Assembly: GCA_004282895.1 (NCBI GenBank)
Contig: SHLQ01000001.1
Span: forward strand, 1 to 58,054
Source: Acidimicrobiales bacterium
Lineage (GTDB): Bacteria; Actinomycetota; Acidimicrobiia; Acidimicrobiales; SHLQ01
Reading direction: 5' to 3'
DNA: 58,054 nucleotides
In this document: positions 50 to 45,447 of the stretch, piece after piece
How positions within the stretch are numbered: the first letter of the stretch is position 1
Layout of the letters: every line of letters starts with the position of its first letter
Position numbers and translations under genes: made by a program
The notes under the pieces: model-generated
What the model saw: the letters and a program-made list of their open reading frames with translations, nothing else
Told to the model about the DNA's origin: nothing
The model's database searches: none

Positions 50-1675
50 TCAGCAGTTCAGGAAGATGTTTGTGCCGGAGGTGTCGCGGCAACGATCCGT
101 GCCGATCCCTCCGTCGTGTTTGTCTGAGCCCAGCCCGCCCTTCAACACGTCCGAGCCGCCACCACCCGTCAGTTCGTCGTTGCCGGCCTGGCCGTAAATG
201 AAATCGTTGCCGGAGTTGCCGCGCAATCGGTCGGCCCCGGTGCCACCTCGAAGGTCATCCGATCCGACGTTCCCATCGATCACGTCGCGACCCTGACCTC
301 CACGAAGGAGGTCGTTGCCAGGACCACCGGTAATCCGGTCATTGCCATGGCCACCACACACCAGATCGTTTCCGTCGGCGCCATGTATGACGTCGTTTCC
401 ATCGAGTGCATGAATGACGTCACGCCCTGATGTTCCGAGGATCGTGTCATCTCCGTTCGTGCCGACAATCGTCGCCAGGACTCCGTTGCAATACACAGCG
501 ACGGGAGCGGGCGGCGGTGCAGGTGCGGGGGGTGCAGGAGCCGGAACCGGTTCAGGTATCGGCGCGGTTGGCGTTGGCGCGGGTGGCGGTGGCGTCTGAC
601 CGGGTGCGCTGACCGGCACGCGGTAGAACGAGTCGTTGATCAGTCGTTTCGCCGCGGACAACGTCTCGGGGCTTGAGTTCAGCCACCATGTACACGAAGG
701 CCAGCCTTCTCCGGCGGCGCTGTCGTGGAAGTACAGGACGGCCGCGAAGCGATCCTTGTATTCACCCGACTTGAACAGGGCTCGAACGTCGTCGAGCCAG
801 CGGGCCTTCTGTCCAATGGAACCCTCGTCGGAACCCCATTCGCCGAGAATCAGCTTCTTGGAGGGATGCTGGCGGGCGAACCGCATGAACGGCTCGATGT
901 TCGACTGAAGCGACTCCCACGGCTCGTTTCCACCGCCTCGACAGTTGTTCCAGTTGTAGGTCTGGGCGCTGATGAAGTCGATGACGTCATCACCGGGGTA
1001 CCACAGGTGAGCTCGACGCCGATCGGTTGGATTGTTGTCACCGACCTCGAAGCTCCACGACGTCATGATCCAGGCGAACGATACATTCGTGACACCCTGG
1101 GCGTCGAAGATCTGGGTGATTCGGCGAAACGCCGCGCGATAGTCGGAGCTCGTGCCGAAGCTGAGGTTCTTCTTGTGTTCCGGTTCGTGGTGGAAGCCAA
1201 TGATCATCGGTTCCCCGAACCGCTTGGCACCGCGGGCCAGGTCGACGATCTCGTTGTACACCCGCGAGCCCGCTGATGCGCTGGCGATGGATGGCCAACG
1301 CACCTGCGAACCGTCGTTTCGAACCGGCTTCACGGAGACCATAAGCTGGCGGCCGCCGTCGCGAACCCACCGATGGAACTTCTTGTCCTCACCCATCTTG
1401 TCGTCCCAGTCGCTGAATCCACGGACCATCGGAAGCGTGCGCCCGAGTGTGTTCTCAAGCTTGATGATGGCGTCGGTGTTGTTCTCCCCACCGACCGGCT
1501 GCGCGTAGGCGCCAAAGGTGACGCCGCCGGGCAGAGCCTCTGCTGGCGACGGCGGAAGGGCGAACAACAACGTGGCGATCAGCGCCATCGTGGCCATGAC
1601 CGCCACCCGGTGAGGGATAAATATGGGCACGATACTACTCCTTGTGCCCAACACCTGCCGGAGACTGTATTGCAC
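50..1675 (-). CDS. Secreted GH26-like (clan GH-A) glycoside hydrolase with Pro-rich linker and C-terminal hemolysin-type (RTX) calcium-binding repeats
   Basis: 541-aa ORF. It has a signal-like segment MATMALIATLLFALPPSPAEA (alternative ATG at 1597). Motifs GFHHEPEH, WYPGDDVIDFISAQTYNW and LGEWGS parallel the neighbouring paralogue and GH26 mannanase-type signatures. A linker PPPPAPTPTAPIPEPVPAPAPPAPAPPPAP is followed by about 14 consecutive GGxGxD nonapeptides. Confidence 0.75.
   Translation of the reverse strand: MQYSLRQVLGTRSSIVPIFIPHRVAVMATMALIATLLFALPPSPAEALPGGVTFGAYAQPVGGENNTDAIIKLENTLGRTLPMVRGFSDWDDKMGEDKKFHRWVRDGGRQLMVSVKPVRNDGSQVRWPSIASASAGSRVYNEIVDLARGAKRFGEPMIIGFHHEPEHKKNLSFGTSSDYRAAFRRITQIFDAQGVTNVSFAWIMTSWSFEVGDNNPTDRRRAHLWYPGDDVIDFISAQTYNWNNCRGGGNEPWESLQSNIEPFMRFARQHPSKKLILGEWGSDEGSIGQKARWLDDVRALFKSGEYKDRFAAVLYFHDSAAGEGWPSCTWWLNSSPETLSAAKRLINDSFYRVPVSAPGQTPPPPAPTPTAPIPEPVPAPAPPAPAPPPAPVAVYCNGVLATIVGTNGDDTILGTSGRDVIHALDGNDVIHGADGNDLVCGGHGNDRITGGPGNDLLRGGQGRDVIDGNVGSDDLRGGTGADRLRGNSGNDFIYGQAGNDELTGGGGSDVLKGGLGSDKHDGGIGTDRCRDTSGTNIFLNC
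53..469 (-). repeat. Array of about 14 nonapeptide GGxGxDxUx (RTX-type) repeat units encoded at the 3' end of the hydrolase gene
   Basis: Translated units include GGHGNDRIT, GGPGNDLLR, GGQGRDVID, GNVGSDDLR, GGTGADRLR, GNSGNDFIY, GQAGNDELT, GGGGSDVLK and GGLGSDKHD, read directly from the ORF translation. Confidence 0.8.
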
Positions 1676-1723
1676 TCACGGAGGAATGCAACTGCTTTCG
1701 AAACAAATCCGAAGCGTGGTATT

Positions 1724-2746
1724 TCAGGGTGTGAACCAGGGATCGTTGCTCATCTCCACCCACGCGGCGTAGCTGTCCGGCGAGGTGTCAACTCGCCAGT
1801 CCCGGTGGCCGCGATCGCTGAAGTCCTTGTCGAAGTAGACGAGTGCGTCGATCTCGGGAAACTCGGCCCGGAGGGTCTCGGGCAGCGAACGAATCCACTC
1901 GGCCTTTTCGCCCGTGGAACCCTCACCAACGCCGGTCTCGCCGATCATGATCGGCAGCCCCTTCGGTTCGGCCCAGTCGTAGAAGTCGCCGAAGATCTCC
2001 CCGAAACCGAGCCAGTCGTCCGCATCGGCGGTGGCGCCCCAGTTGTATCCATCGGCGCAAAGCCAGTCGACGCGGTCGTCGCCTGGGTACCAGGGCTCTG
2101 GATCGCCACCATCCCAGAACAAGAACTCGTTGGGGCACCAGACGAATGCGGCGTTGTTCGCGCCGACATCGGTAAAGATGTCGCGGATGTGGTTCCACGC
2201 CGCAACGTAGTCAGGACCGGAATGGACCCAGTCCCTCCGGCGGTTGCCGTCCATCTCCCACAACCAGCGGAGCAGAATGTCGGTCTCGAGGTCGCGAACC
2301 GCCTCTGCCTGGCGTTGAATCCATTCGTCGTGCACACCGGCGGCAATTTCCTTGGTGTCCGTGCCGTTCCACGAGACCAGCAGCGTCCGACCGTCTTCGA
2401 GATGCATGAGGTCATCGGTCGTGGGGATTGCGGTGTCCCAACTGTGAAACACATGGCCGATGTCGTAGTCGCGGCCGGCATCGGATTCGATCTGTCGCCA
2501 ACGGGGTTCGCGTTCGGCTCGACTCAGCGCGGTCGAGAAGCCCAACAACGCACCTTCTCTCGGCATCACCGAGGTTGTCGGCGCGGAGTCGGTGGTCGGG
2601 GTGACCTCGGAGGTCGTCGTTGGTGCGGGCACGACGCTCGAAGACGACGTGGTGTCGGCCGATCCCGCACAACCGGCAGCGACGAGGCACAGTGCCAGCA
2701 GCGCGGGCCGTAGTGAAGCTGCAGGTCGGGGAAAAGGTGAGGTCAT
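1724..2746 (-). CDS. GH26-like glycoside hydrolase lipoprotein
   Basis: 340-aa ORF with lipobox LVAAGC after a positively charged N-terminus and a Thr/Ser/Pro-rich linker. Motifs WLWEMDGN (acid/base-type), WYPGDDRVDWLCADGYNWG and IGETGV (nucleophile-type) are present. It is a paralogue of the 50-1675 catalytic region. Confidence 0.75.
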   Translation of the reverse strand: MTSPFPRPAASLRPALLALCLVAAGCAGSADTTSSSSVVPAPTTTSEVTPTTDSAPTTSVMPREGALLGFSTALSRAEREPRWRQIESDAGRDYDIGHVFHSWDTAIPTTDDLMHLEDGRTLLVSWNGTDTKEIAAGVHDEWIQRQAEAVRDLETDILLRWLWEMDGNRRRDWVHSGPDYVAAWNHIRDIFTDVGANNAAFVWCPNEFLFWDGGDPEPWYPGDDRVDWLCADGYNWGATADADDWLGFGEIFGDFYDWAEPKGLPIMIGETGVGEGSTGEKAEWIRSLPETLRAEFPEIDALVYFDKDFSDRGHRDWRVDTSPDSYAAWVEMSNDPWFTP

Positions 2747-3018
2747 GGTGCCGAACGCGGTCTCGGCCGCCCAACTGAGGGTAGACGCATAGGTCGCTCA
2801 CAACCCGTCGGTCAGGGGCACAGGCCGATGAGGTTTGTCACTGATATGGTCACTTTGCGTCCATGTCGCGACAAAATGACCGCGCGGTGCGTCTATCTGG
2901 TGGAAGGTGTGTGTGTTGCAGATTTGTCGTGGAGGGCAGCCGTGCGCGTGGAGGTTAAGTGCAGGGGTGTTTGGACCGATTGGAATGCACCGGACACGCC
3001 CAGGGCAGGTAGGGATTT

Positions 3019-4740
3019 ATGGATAGCGAAGAACTCGAACTGGGCCACTACGGCCGCATACTTCGCCGGAGCTGGTGGCTTGTCGCGTTGTCGATTGTCG
3101 CCTGCATGTTGTTGGCGACGTTCTTCCTCCCGCAGCCACGTGACTTCTACGAATCGACGGTCTCGGTCATTCTCCGGCCCGGTCGAGCGGACTTCGGCAG
3201 CGATCGCGACCCGGTCAACGAGGATCGCGAAGCAGGTATCGCGGTTTCGCCAACGATCGGTCAGGTCGTCGTCGACGCAGCGTCGTCCCCGCTCACCCTC
3301 GTCGACTGGAATGACAACCTCACCGTCAGCCCCTGCCTCGACTCATCGAGCCTCGTCGTCAATGACAGCTGTGACAGCGGCATCTTGAGTTTCACCTATC
3401 GCGCCGAAACACCGGAAGAGGCTGGGACGCTCGTCTTTGCGTCGGCCGACGCCTACCTCCAGGATCGCATCGCGCGGGAGCGGACGCTGGTCGACAACCA
3501 GATATCGCAGCTTCGAACCCAGATCGCCGATCTTGAACTCAGCCTCGACAACGAACGAGCGGTCTACAACGCCACCGAGGAAGACAGCCTCGATCGGGTG
3601 CTGTCCCAGACGCGACTCACACGCCTGGAGAACCAGCGGGTTGAAGCCCAGCGCACGGTGACGAACCTCGACGTACCAACCGAAGTTGGCAGCATGTTGG
3701 GTGACCCCACGGAACCCACCGCCGAGAGCGAAGGTATCCCTCGGGTCATCGCACTCGCGGCCGGATTCCTGATGGGGCTTCTGTTCGGCGGAATGGCCGC
3801 AGTGCTCTCCGACCGACTCGACCGTCGCCTCTCGGACGCACCAGAGATCGAAGCCGATCTGGGAGTGCCCGTACTCGGCAATATTCCGAGAATCACCGAA
3901 GACAGCCCAGCGCTGGTCACCGCGGTTGGCGCCCATACCCCGGGAGCGGAAGCGTTCCGCCGACTTGCCGCAGCCGCATTGGTGCCTCGCGATGGGTACA
4001 TCGTGGAATCCATCACCGTGACAGGTGCCAGCGAAAACGAAGGTCGCACGACCACGGCCGTCAACATGGCGATCGCGCTTGGTCAAGCAGGGCGCCAGGT
4101 GCTTCTCGTGGCTGGCGATCGGCGCGACAACTCTCTTGACCGTCTCTTCGGTTTGGCGAACAAGCCGGGTCTGAACGACTTCCTTCGGGGATCGGGAGAC
4201 ATCGAGGCCGCGCGAACCATGGTCGGCACGGCCGAGGAACGTCTCGGTATTCGTGTGATTCCCAGCGGCACCCCCTCGCCGCCACCCCTGTCCACCAGCT
4301 CCATGGCTGCGCTCCTCGCCGCAGCCAATGAACGCGGCATGATGGTCGTCTTCGACTCACCGCCAGCGCTCACACACAGCGATGGTCTGCAGCTCGCGGC
4401 GATCGCCGATGCGGTGTACGTCGTTGCTGCCGTGGGCAAGACCCGTCGCAGTGAGTTGAACGAGTTGCGCATTCAGTTGCTGAACGTCCGCGCCGACCTC
4501 GCCGGAGCGATCATCAACCGCAACAGCCGCGTCTCGCTGCTCCCCGCAGGATCGGCCGAATTCGTCGCTGGGCCCATCACGGTCCCGAACGGCATACCGG
4601 GCAACGCGCGCCGACAGTCAAACCTGGAACGGTTGGCCGAACTGCACGCCAATGAGGAAGGCGATCTTGGTATGCCGGAAGCCGCCGCCGGCCTCGAAGA
4701 GCTCGAGACCGATCGCGATCCGGCGGAGGAAACGTCTTGA
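3019..4740 (+). CDS. Polysaccharide co-polymerase (Wzz-like) fused to a BY-kinase-like P-loop domain, with degenerate kinase motifs
   Basis: ATG at 3019 with AGGGA 5 nt upstream. There is an N-terminal TM, a long coiled periplasmic-type region and a second TM (IALAAGFLMGLLFGGMAAVL). The CpsD/Wzc-like domain has TGASENEGRTTT (Walker A with Arg in place of Lys), LLVAGDRRD and VVFDSPP (Walker B). The C-terminal tail contains no tyrosine. Confidence 0.8.
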   Translation: MDSEELELGHYGRILRRSWWLVALSIVACMLLATFFLPQPRDFYESTVSVILRPGRADFGSDRDPVNEDREAGIAVSPTIGQVVVDAASSPLTLVDWNDNLTVSPCLDSSSLVVNDSCDSGILSFTYRAETPEEAGTLVFASADAYLQDRIARERTLVDNQISQLRTQIADLELSLDNERAVYNATEEDSLDRVLSQTRLTRLENQRVEAQRTVTNLDVPTEVGSMLGDPTEPTAESEGIPRVIALAAGFLMGLLFGGMAAVLSDRLDRRLSDAPEIEADLGVPVLGNIPRITEDSPALVTAVGAHTPGAEAFRRLAAAALVPRDGYIVESITVTGASENEGRTTTAVNMAIALGQAGRQVLLVAGDRRDNSLDRLFGLANKPGLNDFLRGSGDIEAARTMVGTAEERLGIRVIPSGTPSPPPLSTSSMAALLAAANERGMMVVFDSPPALTHSDGLQLAAIADAVYVVAAVGKTRRSELNELRIQLLNVRADLAGAIINRNSRVSLLPAGSAEFVAGPITVPNGIPGNARRQSNLERLAELHANEEGDLGMPEAAAGLEELETDRDPAEETS

Positions 4741-5213
4741 TCCCCATCGATAGTGACAAGCGTTTGAACGTCGGTTTGGTCGGTTCGTCCGGCGGCCACC
4801 TCGCGCACCTGCTCATCCTGAGGCAGTGGTGGCAGGAGCACGATCGGTTCTGGGTGACGTTCGACATGCCGGACAGCCACGACCTGCTCGATTCCGAACG
4901 CGTCGATTGGGCGCACTACCCAACGACCAGAAACCTCAAGAACCTCGTCTTCAACTTCGGCCTGGCGTGGAAGGTCCTTCGTCGTGAACGACCGGACGTC
5001 CTGATCTCGACCGGCGCCGCAGTGGCTTTCCCGTTCTTTCTGCTCGGACGCATGATGGGCGTCAAGACGGTCTTCATCGAGGTCTACGACCGGATCGACC
5101 ATGCGTCCCTTACGGCGCGGCTGTGTGCCCCGTTGTCGAGCAGCTTCCTTGTCCAATGGGAGGACCAACTGGTCTTCCACCCCAGAGCGGAACTCATCGG
5201 GAGATTGATGTGA
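4737..5213 (+). CDS. Alg14-like / PssD / Cps14F-type glycosyltransferase membrane-anchoring subunit
   Basis: TTG start at 4737 overlaps the upstream TGA (TTGA), with GGAGGA 6 nt upstream. The signature GLVGSSGGHLAHLLILRQWW is typical of the Alg14/oligosaccharide biosynthesis family. Confidence 0.8.
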   Translation: MIPIDSDKRLNVGLVGSSGGHLAHLLILRQWWQEHDRFWVTFDMPDSHDLLDSERVDWAHYPTTRNLKNLVFNFGLAWKVLRRERPDVLISTGAAVAFPFFLLGRMMGVKTVFIEVYDRIDHASLTARLCAPLSSSFLVQWEDQLVFHPRAELIGRLM

Positions 5214-6739
5214 CCCCAGCCCCTCGACGATTGCCCGAACCAGGTGTGGGCATCGAGAGACTGTTCGTGTCCGTGGGCACGGACTTCCACCGATTCGACC
5301 GCCTCATGCGCTGGCTGGACGAGTGGATGGCCGCCGATGCCGACGTCCACCACGTTGTTGTTCAGCGGGGGACCTCGGTCGAACCGACGACAGTTACCAG
5401 TGTGGATTACCTGCAACGAGGTCGCCTGATCTCCGAGTTTCAGGACGCCACCGTTGTGGTGTGCCACGGCGGACCCGCGACGATTCTCGAGTGCCGGGCC
5501 AACGGCCTTGTTCCCATCGTCGTGCCACGCGAACAACGATTCAGCGAGCACGTCAACGACCACCAGGTGGATTTCTGCGAGCGGCTCGCCGCCCATGGCG
5601 AGATTCAGCTCGCTCGAACGAAGTCGGAGTTCTTCCGTTTGCTCGACCTGGCGGTGGAACGGGGTGCACCCGAGGTTGCCGTTGACGACGGGCACGCCGC
5701 GATCGCGTTGGGAAATTTTGAAGACGCCATGATCGACCTTCTCGGTACACGAGCCGCAAGTACGCCGGCTGCGCTGGCCGAAGTGGTCGAGCTCAACGCC
5801 GACGACGAGAAGATCCCGGTTTTGTTCATTGGCTCGGTCCCGCGTTCGGGCAGCTCGCTCATTTCGGAACTGCTCGACGAACACCCGCACATGGTGAACA
5901 TCGGCGAGATGGTGCACATGTGGCAACGGGGTGTCATCGACAACGACCGGTGTGGCTGCGGTGAGCCGTTCTCCGACTGCGACTTCTGGACGAAGGTCGG
6001 CGAAGTCGCCTTCGGCGGTTGGAAGAACATCTCCGGTCAACGGATGCGCACGCTTCAACAGCGGGCCGACCGCACCCGTTTCGTCCCCGCCCTGCTCACG
6101 CCCAGGATCTCCCGCCAGATGTTGATCAGCGTCCACCAGTACGGGGCCGTCGTGGCTCGCGTGCTCGCGGCAGTGCGTGAAGTCTCGGGAGCTCCGATCA
6201 TCGTCGACACCTCGAAACACGTGTCGACCGCCCTCCTGCTCCGCCAGATCCCGCAGATCGATCTGCGGGTCGTACATCTCATTCGTGACCCCCGAGGGGT
6301 CGCACATTCCTGGTCCAAACAGGTGGAACGTCCTGAAGTCACGGGCGCTTCGGTCGAGATGGACCGCTTGCATCCAGGTCGAATTGGCCTGCGTTGGCTT
6401 TGGTTCAATTGGGCGTTCAGCAACATGGATCGACTCGGCGTGCCGAGTATGACGATCCGGTACGAGGACTTCGTTGCCGCTCCGCAGGACTCGCTGAATC
6501 AGATGTTCGACTTCGGTGGCGTTGATCCGATCGCGGAATCACTTGTGGCGAACGCCGAACCACGGGTGTTGGACGGCGGCCATTCGGTCTCGGGCAACCC
6601 GGCCCGACTCAGCCGCAAGCCGGTGGAGATCCGCGCCGATGAGGGCTGGAAGACCGGGCTCAACCCCCGCATGCGGAACCTGGTCACACTGATCACCAAA
6701 CCGATGAGGCGTCGATACCACTATCCCGAAGGCGGGTGA
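5210..6739 (+). CDS. Fusion protein: Alg13-like / PssE / GT28 C-terminal-domain glycosyltransferase subunit plus C-terminal sulfotransferase domain
   Basis: A GTG at 5210 overlaps the Alg14-like stop (GTGA); the track ORF extends upstream to 5123. The N-terminal half has LFVSVGTDFHRFDRL and VVCHGGPATILECRANGLVPIVVPR...NDHQVDF. The C-terminal half, from about 5810, has PAPS 5'-phosphosulfate-binding-type FIGSVPRSGSS and 3'-phosphate-type HLIRDPRGVAHSW. Confidence 0.8.
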   Translation: MTPAPRRLPEPGVGIERLFVSVGTDFHRFDRLMRWLDEWMAADADVHHVVVQRGTSVEPTTVTSVDYLQRGRLISEFQDATVVVCHGGPATILECRANGLVPIVVPREQRFSEHVNDHQVDFCERLAAHGEIQLARTKSEFFRLLDLAVERGAPEVAVDDGHAAIALGNFEDAMIDLLGTRAASTPAALAEVVELNADDEKIPVLFIGSVPRSGSSLISELLDEHPHMVNIGEMVHMWQRGVIDNDRCGCGEPFSDCDFWTKVGEVAFGGWKNISGQRMRTLQQRADRTRFVPALLTPRISRQMLISVHQYGAVVARVLAAVREVSGAPIIVDTSKHVSTALLLRQIPQIDLRVVHLIRDPRGVAHSWSKQVERPEVTGASVEMDRLHPGRIGLRWLWFNWAFSNMDRLGVPSMTIRYEDFVAAPQDSLNQMFDFGGVDPIAESLVANAEPRVLDGGHSVSGNPARLSRKPVEIRADEGWKTGLNPRMRNLVTLITKPMRRRYHYPEGG

Positions 6740-7647
6740 TCATGGCGGTGATCAGCACCATCGTTGCCACCCGAGATCGGCCCGAGCTGTTGCGGCAGAC
6801 CCTCGCATCGATCGCCAACCAGACGTACGACGGGGTGATCGAGACGTGTGTCGTGTTCGATCAAACCGAGCCAGACATGTCCCTCGAGGTTGCGGACGGC
6901 AACCGGCCCGTGCGAGTGCTGCGCAACGAACGGCAACCGGGCTTGCAGGGCGCACGGAACACCGGCCTTCTGAACACGAACGGCGAGCTTGTCGCCTTCT
7001 GCGATGACGACGACGTCTGGGCGCCGAGCAAGATTCGTCGACAGGTTGAACTGCTGTCGGGCAATCCGGACGTGCACTTCGTGGGGTCGGGTGTCATCGT
7101 CGAATACGTAGGTGAATCGGTCACCCGGGTCCGTGACGAGTCTCGAATCACCTTTCGTGACCTGCTCCGCTCCCGAGTCTTCGAAGCCCACCCATCCACG
7201 TTTCTCATGCGACGCCGCGAACTCATCGATGTCATCGGCCTGATTGATGAGGCCGTGCCCGGAGGGTACGGCGAAGATTACGAATGGTTGCTGCGGGCCA
7301 CGCGGGAGACCGATCTGCTTCTTGTGCCCGCGCCGCTGGTCACCGTTCGCTGGCACACCGCATCGTTCTACGCCGAGCGTTGGCAGATGCGCATCGACGG
7401 GCTGCAGTACATCCTCGACCGCTTCCCGGAATTCGAAACCGAGCCGGTTGGACTGGCACGGATCAAGGGACAGATGGCGTTCGCGAAGGCATCACTCGGC
7501 GATCGTAAGGCGGCCTTCTCGCTTGCGAAGGAGACACTGAAGCTCAATCCCAAGGAAGCCCGCGCTGGGCTGGCCTTGGCGGTTGCCGCCGGGGTGCCCT
7601 CGGCCACCGTCGTGTCCCAGCTGCAGAAACGTGGAAACTCGGTCTGA
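6736..7647 (+). CDS. Family 2 glycosyltransferase with short TPR-like C-terminal tail
   Basis: GTG at 6736 overlaps the upstream stop (alternative ATG at 6742). Motifs are ISTIVATRDRPELLRQTLASIANQTY and an FCDDDDVW DxD-type motif. Confidence 0.85.
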   Translation: MIMAVISTIVATRDRPELLRQTLASIANQTYDGVIETCVVFDQTEPDMSLEVADGNRPVRVLRNERQPGLQGARNTGLLNTNGELVAFCDDDDVWAPSKIRRQVELLSGNPDVHFVGSGVIVEYVGESVTRVRDESRITFRDLLRSRVFEAHPSTFLMRRRELIDVIGLIDEAVPGGYGEDYEWLLRATRETDLLLVPAPLVTVRWHTASFYAERWQMRIDGLQYILDRFPEFETEPVGLARIKGQMAFAKASLGDRKAAFSLAKETLKLNPKEARAGLALAVAAGVPSATVVSQLQKRGNSV

Positions 7648-8975
7648 TGGCCGTCACCAGCATTCCGATCGAGGCGTCTCCCGCAGCCCGCCGCTACGAA
7701 ACGCCACTGCGTGGTCTGCTCCACCCGGGTCTGCCGTTCTTCGTCATGGCGATGTTGCCGCTGTTCTGGGCGCTTGGCCTGGGGTACTTCACCTTCGTCA
7801 TCGCCGCGGTGCCCATGCTGTTTGGGCTGCTGCTCATACATCCGATTCGAATTCCCAAGGGCTACGGCTGGTGGATCGGTTTCATGGTCTGGACGCTGCT
7901 GTCGGCGATCATGCTGGAACCAAGCCTCAACCGCTACCTCTCGTACAGCTCGCGGGCGCTGGCCCATATTGCCGCCGGCATCATCTTCCTCTACATCTAC
8001 AACCTGCCCACGAAGTACCTCCCGACCGGTCGGATCCTCGCGGTCTGTGGCGGCCTGTTCCTGTTCACCGCGGTCGTCGGCGGCTACCTCGGACTGATCC
8101 TCGGTGAGACCCGACTCTCGACGCCGTTCTCCCAACTCCTTCCGCAGAGCATGCTCAGCAACTCGTTTGTCGAGAACATCGTCCGGCCGCCGTATGCCCA
8201 ACGGCAAGACTTCCTGGGCTTCCCCTTGAACCGACCGGCCATGCCGTTCTCCTTCACGAACGACTGGGGCGCCACGCTGGTGCCCGGGACGTTCCTGGCG
8301 ATTGCCGCAGCCGGACGCGCCGGCCGAGCTCGACGTTTCATGCCAGTGCTGGCGCTTCTCGCGGTTGTGCCGATGATCGTGTCGGTCAACCGAGGGTTGT
8401 GGCTCTCGTTGATGCTCGGGGTGGCCTATGTCGTTGTTCGACAAGCGTCGGCCGGACAGCTGCTTCTGGCGATCCGCCTCTCCGTTGTGGTGTTGTTCGT
8501 CGGCGTGGTAATTGCGGTTTCTCCGCTGGCGGGACTCATCGAAGATCGCGCAACAACATCGCACTCCGTGGGGACGAGAGGTGAGCTCTACACCGACGTG
8601 CTCGAACGTCTCCCCGAATCGCCGATCCTCGGGTTCGGCGCGCCTCTGGCCAATCCCGATCCCACCGCACCGGCCATTGGTACTCACGGCATGTTCTGGA
8701 CCGCGTTGTTCTCCCAGGGTGTGCCCGGACTGATCTTCTATGTCGGCTTCTGGGTGAGTATGGCCGTCCGTACCGGACGAAACATCCGTAGTCAGGAACA
8801 CCTCTGGCTGCACTTGGCGGTGGCGTCGGCGATACCCACGATGTTCTTCTACGACCATCTGCCGGCCGCGCTGCCGCTGATGATGATTGCCGCCGCGGTG
8901 ATCCTTCGGGACCGCCGAGCCGGTGACATCGAACGGGCCCACCTCGCGGAGCAATCGCTCGCGGTGGCGCCATGA
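7647..8975 (+). CDS. O-antigen polymerase/ligase-like (Wzy_C family) polytopic membrane protein
   Basis: ATG at 7647 overlaps the upstream TGA by 1 nt. The 442-aa product has roughly 10-12 hydrophobic segments and a central loop NRGLWLSLMLGVAYVVV of the O-antigen ligase family type. Confidence 0.7.
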   Translation: MAVTSIPIEASPAARRYETPLRGLLHPGLPFFVMAMLPLFWALGLGYFTFVIAAVPMLFGLLLIHPIRIPKGYGWWIGFMVWTLLSAIMLEPSLNRYLSYSSRALAHIAAGIIFLYIYNLPTKYLPTGRILAVCGGLFLFTAVVGGYLGLILGETRLSTPFSQLLPQSMLSNSFVENIVRPPYAQRQDFLGFPLNRPAMPFSFTNDWGATLVPGTFLAIAAAGRAGRARRFMPVLALLAVVPMIVSVNRGLWLSLMLGVAYVVVRQASAGQLLLAIRLSVVVLFVGVVIAVSPLAGLIEDRATTSHSVGTRGELYTDVLERLPESPILGFGAPLANPDPTAPAIGTHGMFWTALFSQGVPGLIFYVGFWVSMAVRTGRNIRSQEHLWLHLAVASAIPTMFFYDHLPAALPLMMIAAAVILRDRRAGDIERAHLAEQSLAVAP

Positions 8976-10072
8976 GTGTCACCGTCGACTGGTGGAGTGC
9001 CGTGCTCGCCGGTCCAGGTGGTTCCATCTCGGAGTCAGGCGAAGGCGAGCGGTACCTTGCCCTTCCCACTCGACGCGCCGCCCGGGTTGTGGTCGACGCC
9101 AGCAACCCCGTCGCAATCAACGACGCGCTCAGCCGTATGGCCGAGGCCCGGTCTCTTCCCGGCGCTGACGTTATTGCCCGCGTCGCCAGTCGCGTTGCCC
9201 CTCAAGCCGCCCCGTCGTGGACGATCCACGGCGGCGACGACGGCAGTCTGCGGACACACTTGAAACAGATCATCGGCGCGGACGTCACGCTGTCCATCGC
9301 CATCGGTCCGCCGAGGCCCAATCAGAAGCCAGTGGTCAGAATCTATGACGGTCCCGACATGGTCGCGATTGCCAAGATGGGCCCGGACCTCCACACCGCG
9401 AGCATGGTCGCGAACGAAGCGCGCTGGTTGGCGGAGCTCACGGCCGCCCCCATTGCCGACGTACAGACCGCGGAGGTTCTCCACCACGGCGAGTTCGGTC
9501 CGAGTGACCTGCTGGTGATGTCACCTCTTCCCCTCGCAAGCGACCTCGGGCTTTCCTTCGATCAGATGCCGACGGAGCTGCTGACCTCGATCGCCAACCG
9601 GGCGCCCTCGGTGGGACTGGCGGATAGTCCGTATTGGATGGCCCTGCTGGGTCGAGCCCAACCGTGGGGGGACGCGGACCTCGAGCGCCTGCTCGACAAC
9701 ATCACCTCGCACCCTCGCTTCGAGTCGGTGGCAACCGGCCTGGCCCACGGCGATTGGTCTCCGTGGAACATCGGGCGAGGAATCGACGGCCAGTGGTGTG
9801 TGTGGGACTGGGAACGAGCGGCCGTCGGCGTGCCCTTGGCATTCGATCTCCTGCATCTGCACTTGCAGTACGGACCGGAGGGGTTTGACGGTGGTCTGCG
9901 CGGCGCCGCCGAGGCGTCCCGCCTGGCTGGCCATGCCGACGAAGACTTCGATCTGGCCACGACCATGTACCTGGCAGAGCTGCTCGTTCGTCATCACGAA
10001 GCCAACCAGACCGGATCGCTTCGCGACGAAGCGGTTCGTCAACTCATTGGTTCGGGCGCCGATACGGTCTAG
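8972..10072 (+). CDS. Aminoglycoside-phosphotransferase-fold (APH/choline-kinase-like) kinase
   Basis: ATGA overlap with the upstream gene. The catalytic-loop motif LAHGDWSPWNI is followed by VWDWERAAVGVPLAFDLLHL (HGDxxxxN ... DWE pattern). Confidence 0.7.
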   Translation: MSVTVDWWSAVLAGPGGSISESGEGERYLALPTRRAARVVVDASNPVAINDALSRMAEARSLPGADVIARVASRVAPQAAPSWTIHGGDDGSLRTHLKQIIGADVTLSIAIGPPRPNQKPVVRIYDGPDMVAIAKMGPDLHTASMVANEARWLAELTAAPIADVQTAEVLHHGEFGPSDLLVMSPLPLASDLGLSFDQMPTELLTSIANRAPSVGLADSPYWMALLGRAQPWGDADLERLLDNITSHPRFESVATGLAHGDWSPWNIGRGIDGQWCVWDWERAAVGVPLAFDLLHLHLQYGPEGFDGGLRGAAEASRLAGHADEDFDLATTMYLAELLVRHHEANQTGSLRDEAVRQLIGSGADTV

Positions 10073-10099
10073 GACGATACGAATGCGGAGTGGACGAAC

Positions 10100-11020
10100 A
10101 TGATCGGTCGGAAGGCGCTGGGGAGGAGCCGAGTCCCCCAACCGGTGCGCGACGTCTACCAATGGGCCAATCGTTCGCAAGGCCGCCTTGACGCGTCCCG
10201 TCGAGTGTTGCCGAACTTCTACGTGGCCGGAACACAACGTGGTGGCACGACATCGTTGTTCATCTACCTTCTGCGGCACGAGCTGGTATTCGGTCCGCGA
10301 CGCGCCAAAGCCGTCCACTATTTCGACACCTCCTATCACCGCAGCGTCGACTGGTATCGAGCCCAGTTCCCCCGGCAGAGCACCATGGATCGGCTTCGTC
10401 AGGAACATGGCGCAAACGCCGCCGTTGGTGAGGGCGCGCCGTACTACATGTACAACCCGACGATTGCGCCCCGGATCGCGGCCCTGACCCCGGAGGCGCG
10501 GGTCATCATGGTTCTGCGCGAACCGCTCGAACGGGCCCTGTCCCATCACAACCATGAGTGCACCCGCGGCTTCGAACATCTCGGTGCAGCCGAGGCCTTC
10601 GACGCTGAGCCAGAACGCCTCGCCGGAGAACGTGCCCGGCTGGAAGCTGACCAGAAGTACATCTCGCACAATGACATCCACTTCTCCTACATCAGCCGGT
10701 CGCGCTACGCCGATCAGGTGGCGCAGTACCTGGACGTGTTCGGCCGCGACCAGGTGTTGGTGCTCGACAGTGCCCGCCTGCACGAGGACCCTGCGGCAAC
10801 GGTGCGCGAGGCGACTGACTTTCTGGGGCTTCCGCCCCTCGAACAGCAGGAGTATCCGCGCTACAACCAGCGCGCGCACGACCCGGTGTCGCCGGAGATG
10901 CGGGAGCGATTCGGTCCGCTGTTCGAGGAATCGAACGCGAAGCTGGCTGCCCTCGTTCCGGGGCGGCTGTCGTGGCTGGAGGCCGGTCGAAACCGGGACG
11001 ATTTGTCCGAAGTGCGTTAG
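10100..11020 (+). CDS. Sulfotransferase (Sulfotransfer_1-like)
   Basis: FYVAGTQRGGTTSLF (5'-PSB loop) and VIMVLREPLERALSHH (3'-PB motif); 306 aa. Confidence 0.8.
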   Translation: MIGRKALGRSRVPQPVRDVYQWANRSQGRLDASRRVLPNFYVAGTQRGGTTSLFIYLLRHELVFGPRRAKAVHYFDTSYHRSVDWYRAQFPRQSTMDRLRQEHGANAAVGEGAPYYMYNPTIAPRIAALTPEARVIMVLREPLERALSHHNHECTRGFEHLGAAEAFDAEPERLAGERARLEADQKYISHNDIHFSYISRSRYADQVAQYLDVFGRDQVLVLDSARLHEDPAATVREATDFLGLPPLEQQEYPRYNQRAHDPVSPEMRERFGPLFEESNAKLAALVPGRLSWLEAGRNRDDLSEVR

Positions 11021-12333
11021 CCCGCTTCGGAGTGGGTGACGGGCTGTTCGCCCATCCATTCCCTCAGGGTGTTCTTCATCTTCGTCTGCTGGATGAAGAT
11101 GTCGTGTTCGGGATCATTGGGACCCGCGGACTGGGGAGCCTTGAAGTAGAAGCTGAGCCACTCCTGCACGCCCGACTCGCCGGCCCGTGACGCAAGGTCC
11201 ATGAACAGCGCAAGGTCGAGAACGATCGGTGCGGCGAGGATGGAGTCGCGAGCCAACAGGTTGATCTTGATCTGCATCGGATAGCCGAGCCAGCCAAAGA
11301 TGTCGATGTTGTCCCAGCCCTCTTTCTCGTCGCCGCGGGGCGGGTAGTAGTCGATGCGGACCTTGTGATCGATCTCGCCGTACAGCTCCGGATAGAGCTC
11401 GGGCTGCAGGATCGTGTCGAGCACACCCAGCTTCGAGGATTCCTTGGTCTGGAAGTTCTCCGGCGCATCGAGCACTTCACCGTCGCGGTTTCCGAGGATG
11501 TTGGTGGAGTACCAGCCGCGAATACCGAGCATCCGGGATTTAAGGCCGGGGGCGATGAGCGTCTTCATCAGTGTCTGACCCGTCTTGAAGTCCTTGCCCG
11601 CGATTGGAACACCTTCGCGTTCGCTCAGGGCAACGATGCACGGCAGATCCGTGGTCAGGTTGGGGGCACCGTTCGCGAACGGCACACCACTCAGCAGTGC
11701 GGCATAGGCATAGATCTGACTGGGCGAGATGTTCTCGTCGTTGTTGCGGAGGCCCTCTTCGAAAGACTCGATCGTGGCGTGCACGTCGGAGGGTTGCTGG
11801 AACGCCTCGGTGGATGCACACCAGACCATCACGAGCCGGTCACAGTCGTTCTCGACCCGGAACTTCTCGATGTCGGCGATGAGCGCTTCGGCCTGCTCCA
11901 TCATGTTTGTCTCGCTCTTGACGCGGACGCCGGTTATACGCGACACCCACCTCTGGTCAAACACGGCATCCATAGCGACGATGCCCTCGAGTTCGCCCGA
12001 GAGCGGCGCAAGATCGGATTCCTTCATGACACCTGCCGTGCGGGCCGCTTCCAGCACGTTCGGCGAGAGTGGGTCCCACCCTCCGAATACCAGATCGTCA
12101 AGATCGGCCAGCGGCACGAACTCGTTGATGCGGGGGTTGCGTCCTGCCTCGCGGGTGCCGAGGCGGATGTGTGCCATCTGGCTGACCGATCCCAACGGTG
12201 GTTCGCCGGTATGGCGGCTGTGTATAACACCAGCGATGAGCGTGGAGGCCACGGCACCGAGGCCGGGCATGAGGACACCGAGCTTGCCGGTGGCAGGGCT
12301 GATCGTACGGGCGGAATGGTCAAGAGAAGTCAT
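11017..12333 (-). CDS. ino1: myo-Inositol-1-phosphate (inositol-3-phosphate) synthase
   Basis: 438-aa ORF with an N-terminal Rossmann-type GVLMPGLGAVASTLIAGV. The C-terminal LARDSILAAPIVLDLALFMDLA matches the conserved MIPS core. Its stop overlaps the convergent sulfotransferase stop. Confidence 0.8.
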   Translation of the reverse strand: MTSLDHSARTISPATGKLGVLMPGLGAVASTLIAGVIHSRHTGEPPLGSVSQMAHIRLGTREAGRNPRINEFVPLADLDDLVFGGWDPLSPNVLEAARTAGVMKESDLAPLSGELEGIVAMDAVFDQRWVSRITGVRVKSETNMMEQAEALIADIEKFRVENDCDRLVMVWCASTEAFQQPSDVHATIESFEEGLRNNDENISPSQIYAYAALLSGVPFANGAPNLTTDLPCIVALSEREGVPIAGKDFKTGQTLMKTLIAPGLKSRMLGIRGWYSTNILGNRDGEVLDAPENFQTKESSKLGVLDTILQPELYPELYGEIDHKVRIDYYPPRGDEKEGWDNIDIFGWLGYPMQIKINLLARDSILAAPIVLDLALFMDLASRAGESGVQEWLSFYFKAPQSAGPNDPEHDIFIQQTKMKNTLREWMGEQPVTHSEAG

Positions 12334-12352
12334 GCCGTCAAACTAAAGACAT

Positions 12353-12381
12353 ACTTCAGTATTGGGAAGTTTGATTCAGTA
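12353..12381. promoter_or_regulatory. Candidate LysR-type operator in the 65-bp ino1/LysR divergent region
   Basis: Inverted repeat ACTTC-N8-GAAGT (12353-12370) fits T-N11-A. Direct repeat TTCAGTA occurs at 12355-12361 and 12375-12381, 20 bp apart. The region is an AT-rich island. Confidence 0.4.
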
Positions 12382-12398
12382 ATGCTTCATCTAGGATC

Positions 12399-13274
12399 AT
12401 GGGGGTGGAACTGGCCGACGTCACCATTGCGCAGCTGCGGTATTTGCTGGCCAGCCGCGACGAGGAGTCCTGGAAGGTGGCAGCCGCGTCCTGTGGCGTA
12501 AGCCCGTCGGCATTCTCCCAGGGGATCGCCCAACTCGAGCGCAAACTCGACCTGGACCTCATCGACCGGAGCGGCCGGCAACGTTCGTTGACCGCTGCGG
12601 GATACGCGGCCGCGACCCATGCGGAGCTCGTCCTGGCGCAGATGCGTGAGCTTTCGCGCTGGGCCAGCGAGGTTCGGGAAGGGGAAGCGGGGCTGCTGGT
12701 CGTGGGGATGATCGACACCGCGGCCGTCCATCATTTTGGCGACGCACTCGTAGCGTTCCGCCGCCGCTACCCGGAGATCGAGCTTCGCCTCATCGTGCAA
12801 CCATCCGCGTCCTTGACCGAGCTGCTTCTCCGCAGTGAGGTCGACCTGATCGTCGCGGTCGAAGTCGCGCCGATGCAAAACGTGCAGTCCGTTCCGCTCG
12901 TTCGTGAGCCGATGTATGTCTATGCGCCTCCAGGCACCGACATTGGGGCGGAGGCGACGTGGGGGCCCTGGGTAACCTTTCCGCAGGCATCGCGGTCGCG
13001 GGCACTCGCCGGCGCCGAGCTGCAGCGGCGCGGCGTGGACTTCACGGTGGTGGCCGAAAGTTCTCAGCCCGCTGTCCTACGGGAGATGGTGCAGCTCGGC
13101 ATGGGGTGGACCGTCCTCTCGTCGGTTGATGCCGAACGAGAACCGCACGCGCTTCGACGAGCCCATCCGAACGCGGTGACCGAACGGGTGCTCTCCATGA
13201 GCCACCGCAGCGACCGAACACCGAGCCCCGCGTTGTCGCGTTTGATCGACGCGTTGCGAGTCGAGGCCTCATGA
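12399..13274 (+). CDS. LysR-family transcriptional regulator
   Basis: N-terminal wHTH IAQLRYLLASRDEESWKVAAASCGVSPSAFSQGIAQLERKL plus a LysR substrate-binding-type C-terminal half. Confidence 0.85.
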   Translation: MGVELADVTIAQLRYLLASRDEESWKVAAASCGVSPSAFSQGIAQLERKLDLDLIDRSGRQRSLTAAGYAAATHAELVLAQMRELSRWASEVREGEAGLLVVGMIDTAAVHHFGDALVAFRRRYPEIELRLIVQPSASLTELLLRSEVDLIVAVEVAPMQNVQSVPLVREPMYVYAPPGTDIGAEATWGPWVTFPQASRSRALAGAELQRRGVDFTVVAESSQPAVLREMVQLGMGWTVLSSVDAEREPHALRRAHPNAVTERVLSMSHRSDRTPSPALSRLIDALRVEAS

Positions 13275-14008
13275 GTGATCAGGAGGTCATGATCCTCGTC
13301 GGCGTGGCGGCTGCGGCCTCGCTTGTCAAGAGCACGTTGGGTGTGGGGTATCCGATCTTCCTTCTGCCCGTTCTTGCGTTGTTCATGGATCTTGCCGACG
13401 CAATCGTCGTCGTCGCTCCCTCCAATCTGGCCATGAACGCGGTTCTGCTGTGGAACGTTCGCAGCGAGGCCGGGAAGTCGCACACCCTGCGCCGATTTCT
13501 CGGCTGGTCCATCGGGTTTGCCATCATCGGCTCGCTCGCCGTGCCGATCTTGCCGGAGGTCGTACTGCGGCTGCTACTCGTCGGGATCGTCCTGGTCTTC
13601 CTGATCAACCGCCGGCGGTCACCACAGTTTGTGCTGTCCCCCCAACGCGCCCACACGTTTACCCCGGCGGCGGGGGCGCTTGCGGGACTGTTTCAGGGGG
13701 CGACCGGCGTCTCTGGGCCAGTGATTACACCGTGGTTTCTCAGTCAGGGGCTGGGACGAAACGCGTTCGTCTACTCGATCAGTTCGGCATTCGCACTCGC
13801 CGGGCTGGCCCAGATTGTCGGACTCGCCGGTCAGGGATTGTTCACCGACGATCTGTTGTTCCCGAGTCTGCTCATCATTCCCGTGGCCCTCGCCATCGTC
13901 CCGATCGGTTTGTGGGTGCGCCGACGGGTGTCGGCCGAGACGTTCGAAGGCCTGGTCGTGTTGTTGCTCATCGGATCGGCAATTGCGATCCTCGTGCGGA
14001 TGTTCTGA
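13271..14008 (+). CDS. TauE/SafE-family sulfite/organosulfonate exporter-like membrane protein
   Basis: ATGA overlap with the LysR gene. The 245-aa product has about 7-8 TM segments and Gly-rich helices typical of the family. Confidence 0.65.
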   Translation: MSDQEVMILVGVAAAASLVKSTLGVGYPIFLLPVLALFMDLADAIVVVAPSNLAMNAVLLWNVRSEAGKSHTLRRFLGWSIGFAIIGSLAVPILPEVVLRLLLVGIVLVFLINRRRSPQFVLSPQRAHTFTPAAGALAGLFQGATGVSGPVITPWFLSQGLGRNAFVYSISSAFALAGLAQIVGLAGQGLFTDDLLFPSLLIIPVALAIVPIGLWVRRRVSAETFEGLVVLLLIGSAIAILVRMF

Positions 14009-14731: not shown

Positions 14732-14842
14732 GTTCCTTTCGGGCGCTTGGGTACAGGGTATCGCACGCCAAATTGGACGAGAGATCGAACCTGTTGTGTT
14801 AATGAACGCCCCAGAGGCCTGATTTCATCCAGACTTAGGGGA

Positions 14843-17915: not shown

Positions 17916-17953
17916 ACGAATCGTGAAACTCGAGTCCTCCGAAAGAGCTGAAC

Positions 17954-30110: not shown

Positions 30111-30239
30111 AACGACACAGGCTATCGACCCCGAATTCGATCGGGTCCGATCGGCCCTCTCATCCTGAGCCGTTTCACCCATCCAGTTGGGCCCCACTTT
30201 TGTCGTTGTATCAAGGGAGGCGACAAGAAGGCTGTGGTA

Positions 30240-32366: not shown

Positions 32367-32442
32367 TCCGGGTCGTACGGCTCACGAAAATATCCTGCAA
32401 AATGGCCTACCCTTGACACTCAGGGTCAACTAGAACAAGGGA

Positions 32443-41293: not shown

Positions 41294-41393
41294 GCGATCA
41301 ACCTAGCGATCCTTGCCCCGCGTGCTCAGGCCCGCTTCGGGCGAACCGATAGATTTGTCAACGACGAAGCAGCGGAAGCCCGAAGGGAACACT

Positions 41394-45344: not shown

Positions 45345-45447
45345 CAGGGTGGGGCCCTGAGCCGACCCCGAGATGCAGGGGAAGATCAGGGTCCAATGGG
45401 GGCATCACCCAATAGTCTTCGGGGGCTGCGGTCGTGAAGATGACAGC

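Follow-up and report, generated by a model that had tools for sequence, protein, structure and literature searches.

What does a bacterium assemble with an operon in which two sulfotransferases and a kinase stand among glycosyltransferases, a Wzy-type membrane protein, and a co-polymerase? Natural sulfated polysaccharides are attributed chiefly to animals, algae, and cyanobacteria. The question is raised here by positions 3019 to 11020 of a 58,054-bp contig (SHLQ01000001.1), referred to as the window at its whole length, which comes from a metagenome-assembled genome (MAG) of Acidimicrobiales (Actinomycetota), a marine-type lineage. The initial annotation had proposed a candidate locus for a sulfated surface glycan, with the missing functions encoded elsewhere, and this proposal is supported by the binding motifs for 3'-phosphoadenosine 5'-phosphosulfate (PAPS), by the co-conservation of the genes, and by related loci that carry the PAPS pathway. 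We regard it as likely that the locus directs the Wzy-type assembly of an anionic extracellular β-linked heteroglycan, which would bear sulfate at two positions and probably phosphate as well, and that it belongs to a family widespread in Actinomycetota. The locus spans positions 50-11020 and consists of the operon plus two upstream exported glycanases of the glycoside hydrolase family 26 (GH26) type on the minus strand. The only description of a cluster of this type that we found in the literature searched is that of wps-1 in Actinoplanes missouriensis (AMIS_7280-7380, encoding WpsA-K; Tezuka & Ohnishi, AEM June 2026; PMC13390465). The features of the locus are as follows, G1-G7 denoting the seven operon open reading frames (ORFs) in order from 3019 to 11020 on the plus strand.

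50..1675, minus strand: secreted protein comprising signal peptide, GH26-like domain, Pro-rich linker, and, at the C-terminus, RTX calcium-binding repeats (Pfam HemolysinCabind, 4.5e-31)
1724..2746, minus strand: GH26 glycoside hydrolase, predicted lipoprotein, counterpart of WpsE (structure-sequence match, lipobox)
2747..3018, no strand: divergent intergenic region lying between divergent genes, with the presumed promoters for the glycanase genes and the operon
3019..4740, plus strand: G1, Wzz/PCP-2-type polysaccharide co-polymerase with a C-terminal domain of the bacterial tyrosine kinase (BY-kinase) fold (structure-sequence matches, prediction of transmembrane (TM) helices)
4737..5213, plus strand: G2, Alg14/PssD/Cps14F-type subunit, the membrane-associated acceptor half of a split GT-B glycosyltransferase (Pfam, NCBIfam)
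5210..6739, plus strand: G3, Alg13/PssE/Cps14G-type donor-binding half, a disordered linker, and a predicted PAPS sulfotransferase resembling tyrosylprotein sulfotransferase (TPST) and CurM (Pfam, NCBIfam, AlphaFold2 (AF2), Foldseek)
6736..7647 (or from ATG 6742), plus strand: G4, GT2 (GT-A) glycosyltransferase (Pfam Glycos_transf_2, 8.8e-24)
7647..8975, plus strand: G5, polytopic membrane protein of the Wzy_C (O-antigen polymerase/ligase) family (Pfam Wzy_C, 3e-9)
8972..10072, plus strand: G6, cytoplasmic kinase of the aminoglycoside phosphotransferase (APH) fold, small-molecule/sugar-hydroxyl type, with an extra N-terminal domain of ~100 aa, counterpart of WpsI (AF2, Foldseek)
10100..11020, plus strand: G7, second predicted PAPS sulfotransferase, resembling heparan sulfate (HS) 3-O-sulfotransferase (3-OST) and NDST, counterpart of WpsH (Pfam Sulfotransfer_1, 2.6e-12)

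The claim of sulfation is carried by G3 and G7. The initial annotation had recognised two independent PAPS-type sulfotransferase domains, and this was borne out, as were all of its domain calls, by Pfam (Alg14, Glyco_tran_28_C, Sulfotransfer_1/3, Glycos_transf_2, and Wzy_C), by CapB structures, and by Foldseek for the APH fold. The two domains belong to different subfamilies, that of G3 being TPST/CurM-like and that of G7 HS 3-OST/NDST-like. The first of them does not stand alone: eight genes had been counted in the operon, and there are seven, the Alg13-like domain (~5210-5764) and the first sulfotransferase domain (~5795-6739) sharing one uninterrupted ORF of 509 aa. Two independent assemblies annotate this fusion as one gene, with a product of 490 or 509 aa, more than 100 homologues of 480-530 aa contain both domains, and the two are contiguous in 37 of the 80 species genomes with related loci described below. 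The C-terminal part of G3 matches Pfam Sulfotransfer_3 (7.5e-12) and Sulfotransfer_1 (1.8e-8), and its nearest solved structures are TPST1/2 and the CurM/OLS sulfotransferase domains. The AF2 model of G3 (mean pLDDT 81.6) has two folded domains joined by a low-confidence linker at residues 181-197; the top Foldseek hits were GT-B C-terminal domains for the N-terminal domain and TPST1/2 (TM-score 0.55-0.65, target-normalised) and the CurM sulfotransferase for the C-terminal domain, indicating a sulfotransferase fold. G7, compared with Protein Data Bank (PDB) sequences, matched 3rnl at 6.7e-19 and HS 3-OST-1/3/5 and the NDST1 sulfotransferase domain at 1e-10 to 6e-14, with 3-OST-1 at 6e-14.

Alignments of the PAPS-binding residues indicated that the 5'-phosphosulfate-binding (5'-PSB) and 3'-phosphate-binding (3'-PB) motifs are kept in both sulfotransferases. 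In G3, the 5'-PSB motif reads GSVPRSGSSL and aligns to GVPRSGTTL of TPST, and R212-S-G-S215 is invariant among 12 sequences of 38-68% identity; the 3'-PB motif reads RDPRGVAHSW, with R359-D-x-R362..S367-W368 invariant in the same 12-sequence alignment. In G7, GTQRGGTTS aligns to GVRKGGTRA of 3-OST-1, and the 3'-PB motif reads REPLERALS; among 33 family members, the 5'-PSB pattern G..R.GTT.L and the 3'-PB consensus RDPV.RA.S are both at least 90% conserved. Sulfate transfer from PAPS by G3 and G7 is thus predicted from their sequences. G3 also contains, at residues 248-260 (~5951-5989), the motif C-x-C-G-x-x-F-x-x-C-x-x-W (C248, C250, and C257), which is invariant across 38-68% identity and to which the aligned TPST and CurM stretches do not reach; its cysteines may bind a metal or form a disulfide.

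The genes of the operon are also conserved as a set. A scan of one genome per species with Alg13-domain patterns alone gave 80 loci, which were then searched with the window proteins by tblastn; 55 of them had 10-kb flanks on both sides. Co-occurrence, which the initial annotation had proposed to test for its eight genes, was strong: among the 55 full-flank loci, Alg14 was present in all 55, GT2 and Wzy in 50 each, and the kinase and the G7-type sulfotransferase in 47 each; these five core genes occurred together in 40. Among the same 55, the control genes of the window were found in one locus each (Ino1, LysR, and TauE) or in none (the ABC-2 permease, the ABC ATPase, and the amine oxidase). 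Over all 80 loci, the counts were 79 for Alg14 (48-82% identity), 74 for GT2, 64 for Wzy, and 63 for the G7-type sulfotransferase, with both sulfotransferase types in 36. The carriers include Catellatospora, many Micromonospora, Nocardiopsis, Actinoallomurus, Planobispora, Nocardioides, Pseudokineococcus, Streptomyces specialis, Euzebyaceae, and MAGs of Ilumatobacteraceae/Acidimicrobiaceae. Clustering of the neighbours at the 80 loci gave further recurrent partners: MOP/Wzx-like proteins (46 loci; weak Polysacc_synt/MatE-type matches), Bac_transf (19), CysQ-like proteins (16), CysD (12), CysN (9), and CysC (4). In our view, these PAPS-pathway genes embedded in related clusters are the strongest indirect evidence for a sulfated product.

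Within the clade, the operon is intact and its order kept in four Acidimicrobiales relatives (L004, L084, L086, and L087) at 63-70% identity. The shared flanks of these relatives consist of an SLC13/CitMHS sulfate-symporter-like gene, GH26 and/or RTX genes, the operon, and Ino1 on the opposite strand, LysR, and TauE. The symporter-like gene is adjacent in all four and in the Ilumatobacteraceae locus L042, where it stands beside cysQ, cysD, cysN, and cysC. In the window, the genes for the myo-inositol-1-phosphate synthase Ino1, a LysR regulator, and a member of the TauE/SafE anion-exporter family occupy 11017-14008, as they also follow the operon in the four relatives; the Ino1 gene is convergent and shares 4 nt with the stop of G7. 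The contig stops 50 bp upstream of the RTX gene, at the place expected for the symporter of the clade relatives. The flanking TauE/SafE and SLC13/CitMHS genes could reflect plain synteny or a link to sulfur-anion transport. Two side observations were made on these relatives. L004 (JBLIMK010000017.1), the closest relative in the genome collection, is labelled 'Verrucomicrobiales bacterium', with an Ino1 88% and a cluster 55-82% identical to those of the window, and is probably a mis-binned contig. L087 carries an epimerase, an RmlA-like NTP transferase, and a 4,6-dehydratase-like gene (5181-7992 of that locus) between the co-polymerase and Alg14, which hints at a deoxy- or epimerised-hexose component; the sole counterpart of these nucleotide-sugar genes in the window is a distant epimerase/dehydratase at 41307-42401.

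For the nearest described system, too, a sulfated polymer is predicted. No characterised actinobacterial example had been known to the initial annotation; wps-1 has meanwhile been characterised genetically, in 2026 (PMC13390465), and the statement stands as far as chemistry is concerned, sulfation being chemically unproven in any actinobacterium. The wps-1 inventory comprises a GT2, a sulfotransferase, a GT26, a DUF4262 protein, a GH26, a methyltransferase, a Wzx, an HS-type sulfotransferase, a kinase-like protein, a Wzy, and a Wzz; every gene except wpsD, plus an adjacent gene of the CysN/APS-kinase family (APS, adenosine 5'-phosphosulfate), is needed for normal sporangia, and the product is predicted to be a sulfated polysaccharide, of which the authors say that sulfation awaits verification (PMC13390465). 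Seven functions are shared with the window, pairing WpsA with G4, WpsB with the C-terminal part of G3, WpsH with G7, WpsI with G6, WpsJ with G5, WpsK with G1, and WpsE with the product of 1724-2746. Thus, the window likewise combines two sulfotransferases of different subfamilies, one of them HS-sulfotransferase-like, with a kinase-like protein, GH26, GT2, Wzy, and Wzz, and WpsK resembles G1 in being a Wzz with a C-terminal export/kinase-type domain. Related loci of Catellatospora (L007 and L008) have the order GH26-Wzx-sulfotransferase-kinase-Wzy-Wzz with a divergent glycosyltransferase-sulfotransferase-GT2 arm, which mirrors wpsE-K. The two clusters differ in the second glycosyltransferase, which is a GT26 (WpsC) in wps-1 and a split Alg14/Alg13 pair of the PssDE type, its donor half fused to a sulfotransferase, in the window, and Pfam scans of the window found no GT26, Wzx (WpsG), methyltransferase (WpsF), DUF4262 (WpsD), or adjacent CysN/APS-kinase-family gene. 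The hosts differ as well, one being a sporangium-forming actinomycete and the other a non-sporangiate marine-type Acidimicrobiales MAG. Relative to the description of wps-1, the glycosyltransferase-sulfotransferase-GT2, kinase-sulfotransferase, and co-polymerase-kinase fusions and the mostly degenerate kinase domain of the co-polymerase are new here.

A chemically shown case of sulfation is that of synechan, the product of the xss cluster of Synechocystis sp. PCC 6803 (PMC8205485). Like the window, xss combines glycosyltransferases and a co-polymerase with two sulfotransferases that belong to distinct subfamilies, and it is a Wzx/Wzy-type exopolysaccharide cluster in which sulfation is thought to precede flipping and to take place on the lipid-linked unit (PMC8205485). 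Unlike the window, it has eight glycosyltransferases, its own Wzx, and dedicated regulation, and it has no APH-fold kinase, GH26, or fusion of a glycosyltransferase with a sulfotransferase; in addition, cyanobacteria are diderm and require an OPX exporter.

The remaining genes fit the assembly of a lipid-linked unit and its polymerisation. G2 matches Pfam Alg14 (3.4e-10; 40.6 bits, cut-off 27) and the NCBIfam PssD/Cps14F model at 109.8 bits against an equivalog cut-off of 110, and the N-terminal half of G3 matches Pfam Glyco_tran_28_C (2.1e-10; 41.3 bits, cut-off 22), the PssE/Cps14G model (62.5 bits against a cut-off of 120), and the C-terminal half of WelK. The Alg14-type gene overlaps the Glyco_tran_28_C-type gene by 4 nt, as an Alg14/Alg13 pair. 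PssD/PssE, Cps14F/Cps14G, and WelK are the bacterial counterparts of eukaryotic Alg14/Alg13, which G2 and the N-terminal half of G3 resemble, and they add a second, β-1,4-linked sugar to a lipid-diphosphate-hexose. Unlike PssE, Cps14G, and WelK, the donor half in G3 has a C-terminal sulfotransferase, followed in some relatives by a GT2: proteins P0087, P0095, and P0097 (~810 aa) are Alg13-sulfotransferase-GT2 fusions. We found no description of a glycosyltransferase half with a C-terminal sulfotransferase, with or without GT2, in the literature searched. For G4, the nearest solved structure is PglI, a β-1,3-glucosyltransferase acting on an undecaprenyl-diphosphate-linked oligosaccharide (1.7e-14). 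G5 scored 37.3 bits with Pfam Wzy_C (cut-off 31.7) and has several strongly hydrophobic segments, and it is presumed from its sequence to be the repeat-unit polymerase.

G1 has TM helices at residues ~14-32 and ~243-261, the two-TM topology of Wzz-like proteins, and its C-terminal domain matched the CapA/CapB chimera 3bfv at E 2.8e-20 in the comparison with PDB sequences and Wzc structures at ~1e-14, with Etk, BceF, and VpsO as further relatives; these features are those of a co-polymerase of the Wzx/Wzy pathway. The NCBIfam tyrosine-autokinase and chain-length models matched it well below their cut-offs, and a Pfam Wzz domain was detected, weakly, solely in the co-polymerase of one relative. 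G1 shares with the BY-kinase co-polymerases CapA/CapB, Wzc, and Etk the topology, a homologous P-loop domain, and Walker B (VVFDSPP, aligned to VIIDTPP), but differs from them in three respects. Its Walker A, GASENEGRTTT, has Arg (NEGRTT) in place of the CapB Lys and departs from the BY-kinase pattern GxxxxGK[ST]; its Walker A' is AGD rather than DxD, the first Asp having been lost; and its last 40 residues contain no Tyr, so that the C-terminal tyrosine cluster is missing. Walker A is likewise unrecognisable in the co-polymerases of most homologous clusters. The BY-kinase-fold domain of G1 is thus probably impaired in catalysis and probably a pseudokinase-like scaffold, not an autokinase.

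On the extracellular side, the product of 1724-2746 matches the GH26 domain of C. thermocellum Lic26A/CelH (2v3g) at E 1.4e-25, with WEMDG and IGETG falling on the acid/base and nucleophile motifs, and Pfam GH26 at 20.4 bits against a cut-off of 20.2. It carries the lipobox LVAAG/C, with a Ser/Thr/Pro linker behind it, and, as a predicted lipoprotein, is probably involved in trimming or releasing the extracellular β-glycan. The N-terminal domain of the product of 50-1675 is 24% identical to this adjacent protein (E 2e-16), with EPEH and GEWG at the catalytic Glu positions; the protein is a second glycanase, which is probably released. An RTX protein stands at the equivalent position in L087, and a GH26-like neighbour was found in 45 of the 80 related loci. 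The intergenic region 2747-3018 gave no above-chance match in a promoter/terminator scan and no Rfam match, and no motif was conserved among the upstream regions of five relatives.

From these elements, a pathway may be put together in which we infer the order of the reactions, the modification of the lipid-linked unit before export, the phosphorylation of the glycan, and the scaffold role of G1. A polyprenyl-diphosphate-sugar primer would be supplied by a phosphoglycosyl transferase encoded outside the window (Bac_transf in 19 related loci), the PssD/PssE-type split transferase formed by G2 and the N-terminal half of G3 would extend it, and G4 would add another sugar to the lipid-linked unit. 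At the cytoplasmic face, with PAPS and ATP at hand, the sulfotransferase domain of G3 would sulfate the unit, G7 would sulfate it again, and G6 would phosphorylate it; G3, G4, G6, and G7 have no TM helix and no signal peptide. A flippase encoded elsewhere (MOP/Wzx-like in 46 related loci) would flip the unit, and G5 would polymerise the units together with the co-polymerase G1, the kinase-like domain of which would serve as a scaffold. Outside the cell, the GH26 lipoprotein and its RTX-tailed paralogue, both of which carry export signals, would trim or release the polymer. The PssDE-type transferase and the GH26 proteins together suggest that its backbone is β-linked.

The kinase G6 is the least familiar component. 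It has no Pfam match, PF01636 included, and no NCBIfam match, PF01636 being annotated on some homologues and faint in L084. Its AF2 model (pLDDT 91.5, pTM 0.90) gave APH(3'), APH(2''), and APH(4) as the top Foldseek hits (E ~2e-8, TM-score 0.55-0.63), that is, aminoglycoside and macrolide phosphotransferases. The residues K135, E149, H259-G-D261..N266, and D279-W-E281, which are those expected of a catalytic kinase, are invariant among 25 homologues, and the catalytic loop HGDWxPWN is of the small-molecule type of APH and choline kinase. G6 is thus like the APH-fold aminoglycoside and sugar-hydroxyl kinases in its bilobal fold, Lys-Glu pair, HGDxxxxN loop, and DxE metal motif, and unlike them in having no Pfam match in the window protein, an extra N-terminal domain of ~100 aa, and a recurrent fusion or adjacency to a sulfotransferase. 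WaaP and FAM20B are functionally comparable glycan kinases. The family is large, with 1,583 clusters at E<=1e-30 and 3,905 at E<=1e-10 in a profile search of 1.84 billion representatives, and no function is assigned to this WpsI-type family in the libraries searched, apart from the phenotype of the wpsI deletion.

The kinase adjoins the G7-type sulfotransferase on the same strand in 48 of the 58 loci having both, and the two are fused in P0255, P0369, and P0295, with the kinase first, as G6 precedes G7 in the window. Among unusually long family matches, P0364 was found to consist of a sulfotransferase followed by a kinase, and P0313 is a full co-polymerase with a degenerate P-loop domain and the kinase at its C-terminus. 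The fusions and the adjacency suggest that the kinase is tied to the sulfation step or to the co-polymerase, and, together with the Alg13-sulfotransferase-GT2 proteins, the fusions suggest that the enzymes work as one membrane-associated complex. We would go further only tentatively, to a machine that modifies the glycan as it builds it: glycosyl transfer, two sulfations, and phosphorylation would proceed in one membrane complex organised by a kinase-dead co-polymerase, in which the WpsI-type kinase would phosphorylate the repeat unit or replace the regulation by a BY-kinase. P0242, in addition, is a tandem duplication of the WpsI-type kinase domain.

The alternative that survives best concerns the fate of the oligosaccharide. 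Since PF04932 includes polymerases, ligases, and O-oligosaccharyltransferases, and since G5 gave no informative match in a sequence search against PDB, G5 could act as a WaaL/PglL-like ligase or O-oligosaccharyltransferase that transfers a short sulfated or phosphorylated oligosaccharide to protein, lipid, or the cell wall; the encoding of just two or three glycosyl transfers and the absence of a nearby Wzx or priming gene in the clade would agree with this. However, a co-conserved two-TM co-polymerase, G1, stands first in the operon, and co-polymerases accompany polymerases; the two secreted endo-type GH26 glycanases speak for a polymeric β-glycan as the substrate; and the wps-1 phenotype concerns the matrix substance of the sporangium (PMC13390465). 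We therefore hold the decoration of a glycoconjugate to be unlikely.

It is also improbable, in our estimate, that the sulfotransferases or the kinase act away from the glycan, with the G3 domain sulfating tyrosine or a small molecule and G6 regulating the co-polymerase or serving as an APS kinase of a non-canonical kind. Structurally, the G3 domain does match best to tyrosylprotein sulfotransferases and the CurM sulfotransferase, but it forms one polypeptide with a glycosyltransferase half, which in three proteins includes GT2 as well, and this points to a carbohydrate acceptor. For G6, the degenerate P-loop of the co-polymerase in most clusters and the fusion of the kinase to the C-terminus of such a co-polymerase in P0313 would fit a regulatory role, and donor channelling would also fit the kinase-sulfotransferase fusions and the lack of cysC within 10 kb at 8 of the 12 cysD loci; against these stand the small-molecule type of the kinase loop and the sugar-hydroxyl kinases among the top folds. 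Loci L005, L043, and L047 have both the kinase and a canonical cysC, so that the kinase is no simple substitute for the latter, and the candidate role of G6 as a substitute APS kinase was downgraded accordingly (the E. coli CysC query produced clean matches of 46-54% identity).

As had been noted in the initial annotation, no priming transferase, Wzx, or PAPS-synthesis gene was found in the window: Pfam scans of the remaining coding-type ORFs and tblastn with proteins of the related loci detected no priming transferase, no Wzx, and no cysC, cysD, cysN, or cysQ in the 58 kb. Thus, neither a Bac_transf/WecA-type initiating enzyme nor a MOP-family Wzx, as expected for a Wzx/Wzy pathway, lies within the locus. 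The initial annotation had named the Wzm/Wzt exporter at 15820-17915 as a possible component encoded elsewhere, and this link is unsupported, given that the exporter was found in 0 of 55 related loci and beside the operon in none of the four clade relatives. As the primer enzyme, a WecA-type GlcNAc transferase, considered by analogy with Alg7/Alg13/Alg14, was replaced by Bac_transf, which occurs in 19 loci, G2/G3 matching best to PssD/PssE/WelK. It is common for primer and flippase genes to be scattered away from polysaccharide loci.

Apart from the gene count, the structure of the operon was confirmed. The junctions are as had been claimed (TTGA at 4737, GTGA at 5210, GTGA at 6736, TGATG at 7645-7649, and ATGA at 8972), five overlaps linking six genes, and so is the 27-nt spacer ahead of ATG 10100, after which the seventh gene starts. 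Plausible Shine-Dalgarno sequences precede TTG 4737 (GGAGGA) and GTG 5210 (GGGAGA), and G4 could start at ATG 6742, 2 nt past the preceding stop, instead of GTG 6736. Because high-GC operons ordinarily contain stop/start overlaps, the structure of this one, though real, is unremarkable. The seven plus-strand ORFs at the coordinates listed above have coding-type GC at third codon positions (GC3) and are intact, as is the GH26 gene; long antisense ORFs on the minus strand of the operon (5084-6373, 7368-8954, and 9521-11059) have non-coding-type codon-position GC and were rejected as high-GC artefacts. The GC content is 61-66% along the whole window, with GC and skew uniform, so that a horizontal-transfer island was rejected for lack of any compositional island. 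The exact proteins have the accessions NNC81684-92 (locus tags HKN94_161xx) and RZV48826-33, and the same locus is present in the NCBI assembly GCA_013001425.1 and two Logan assemblies. That the locus is an incomplete or decaying remnant without a product, for which the lack of primer, flippase, and PAPS functions in the 58-kb window might speak, is very improbable, given that the ORFs are intact and translationally coupled, that their order is kept in four relatives (63-70%), that the catalytic motifs are invariant, and that the composition does not depart from that of the remaining contig.

Several points nevertheless weigh against a sulfated, Wzy-assembled heteroglycan. The Lys of the 5'-PSB motif is Arg in both G3 and G7. 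Arg at this position is tolerated in TPST-type enzymes, and because the equivalent Arg of TPST is catalytic, the exchange is no argument against activity as far as the TPST type is concerned. G7 lacks, in the alignment, the Glu that is the catalytic base in 3-OST-1, the neighbouring His and Asp being kept. Wzy_C proteins may be ligases or O-oligosaccharyltransferases rather than polymerases. There is no priming transferase or flippase in the window or within 10 kb in L004, L084, L086, and L087, and the PAPS-synthesis genes are absent from the 58-kb contig, to which this result refers. The homology to wps-1 is deduced from domain content and the gene order in Micromonosporaceae, that is, from architecture and synteny; a search seeded with the Catellatospora kinase homologue returned no AMIS protein among its matches. 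Finally, as the wps-1 paper itself states, a sulfate ester has not been chemically demonstrated for this cluster family in any organism (PMC13390465).

The findings indicate that the wps-1 cluster type is no peculiarity of Actinoplanes and represents a conserved family in cultured actinobacteria and uncultured Acidimicrobiia, often linked to cysDN, cysC, cysQ, and a sulfate-symporter-like gene, and that the large family of APH-fold kinases gains a clear pathway context. The many cultured carrier strains, such as Catellatospora coxensis NBRC 107359, Micromonospora haikouensis DSM 45626, and Nocardiopsis algeriensis CECT 8712, allow sulfation to be tested directly, and the glycosyltransferase-sulfotransferase fusion may serve the engineering of sulfated glycans. 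If the proposed product is correct, the polymers of marine Acidimicrobiales would add to the pool of sulfated, degradation-resistant polysaccharides in the sea. If, moreover, the glycan is modified as it is built, an abundant planktonic or symbiotic actinobacterial lineage would be an unrecognised source of sulfated and phosphorylated polysaccharide, made by a system that runs without a cluster-encoded Wzx or primer enzyme and is flanked by sulfate-transporter-like genes.

Some observations were made on the rest of the window, in which tRNA and Rfam scans were empty. The exporter named in the initial annotation belongs to a row of four plus-strand genes at 14630-19177, which encode asparaginase II, the ABC-2 permease, the ABC ATPase, extended at its C-terminus by ~150 aa, and a flavin amine oxidase. 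The minus-strand ORF for isoleucyl-tRNA synthetase (26982-32366) is open for ~620 codons upstream of the conserved domain and overlaps a plus-strand ORF with a weak TadE/G-like match, making the start calls ambiguous. A LuxR-type response regulator, a PspC-domain histidine kinase, and a PspC/LiaF-like protein at 43474-46572 form a cell-envelope stress module. The plus-strand gene at 32434-34881 encodes an 815-aa DUF5122 β-propeller homologous to a family of secreted propellers (31% identity over 443 aa, E 1e-39); members of this family adjoin the cluster in 33 related loci, mostly of Micromonospora and Catellatospora, and the window member lies 21 kb off.

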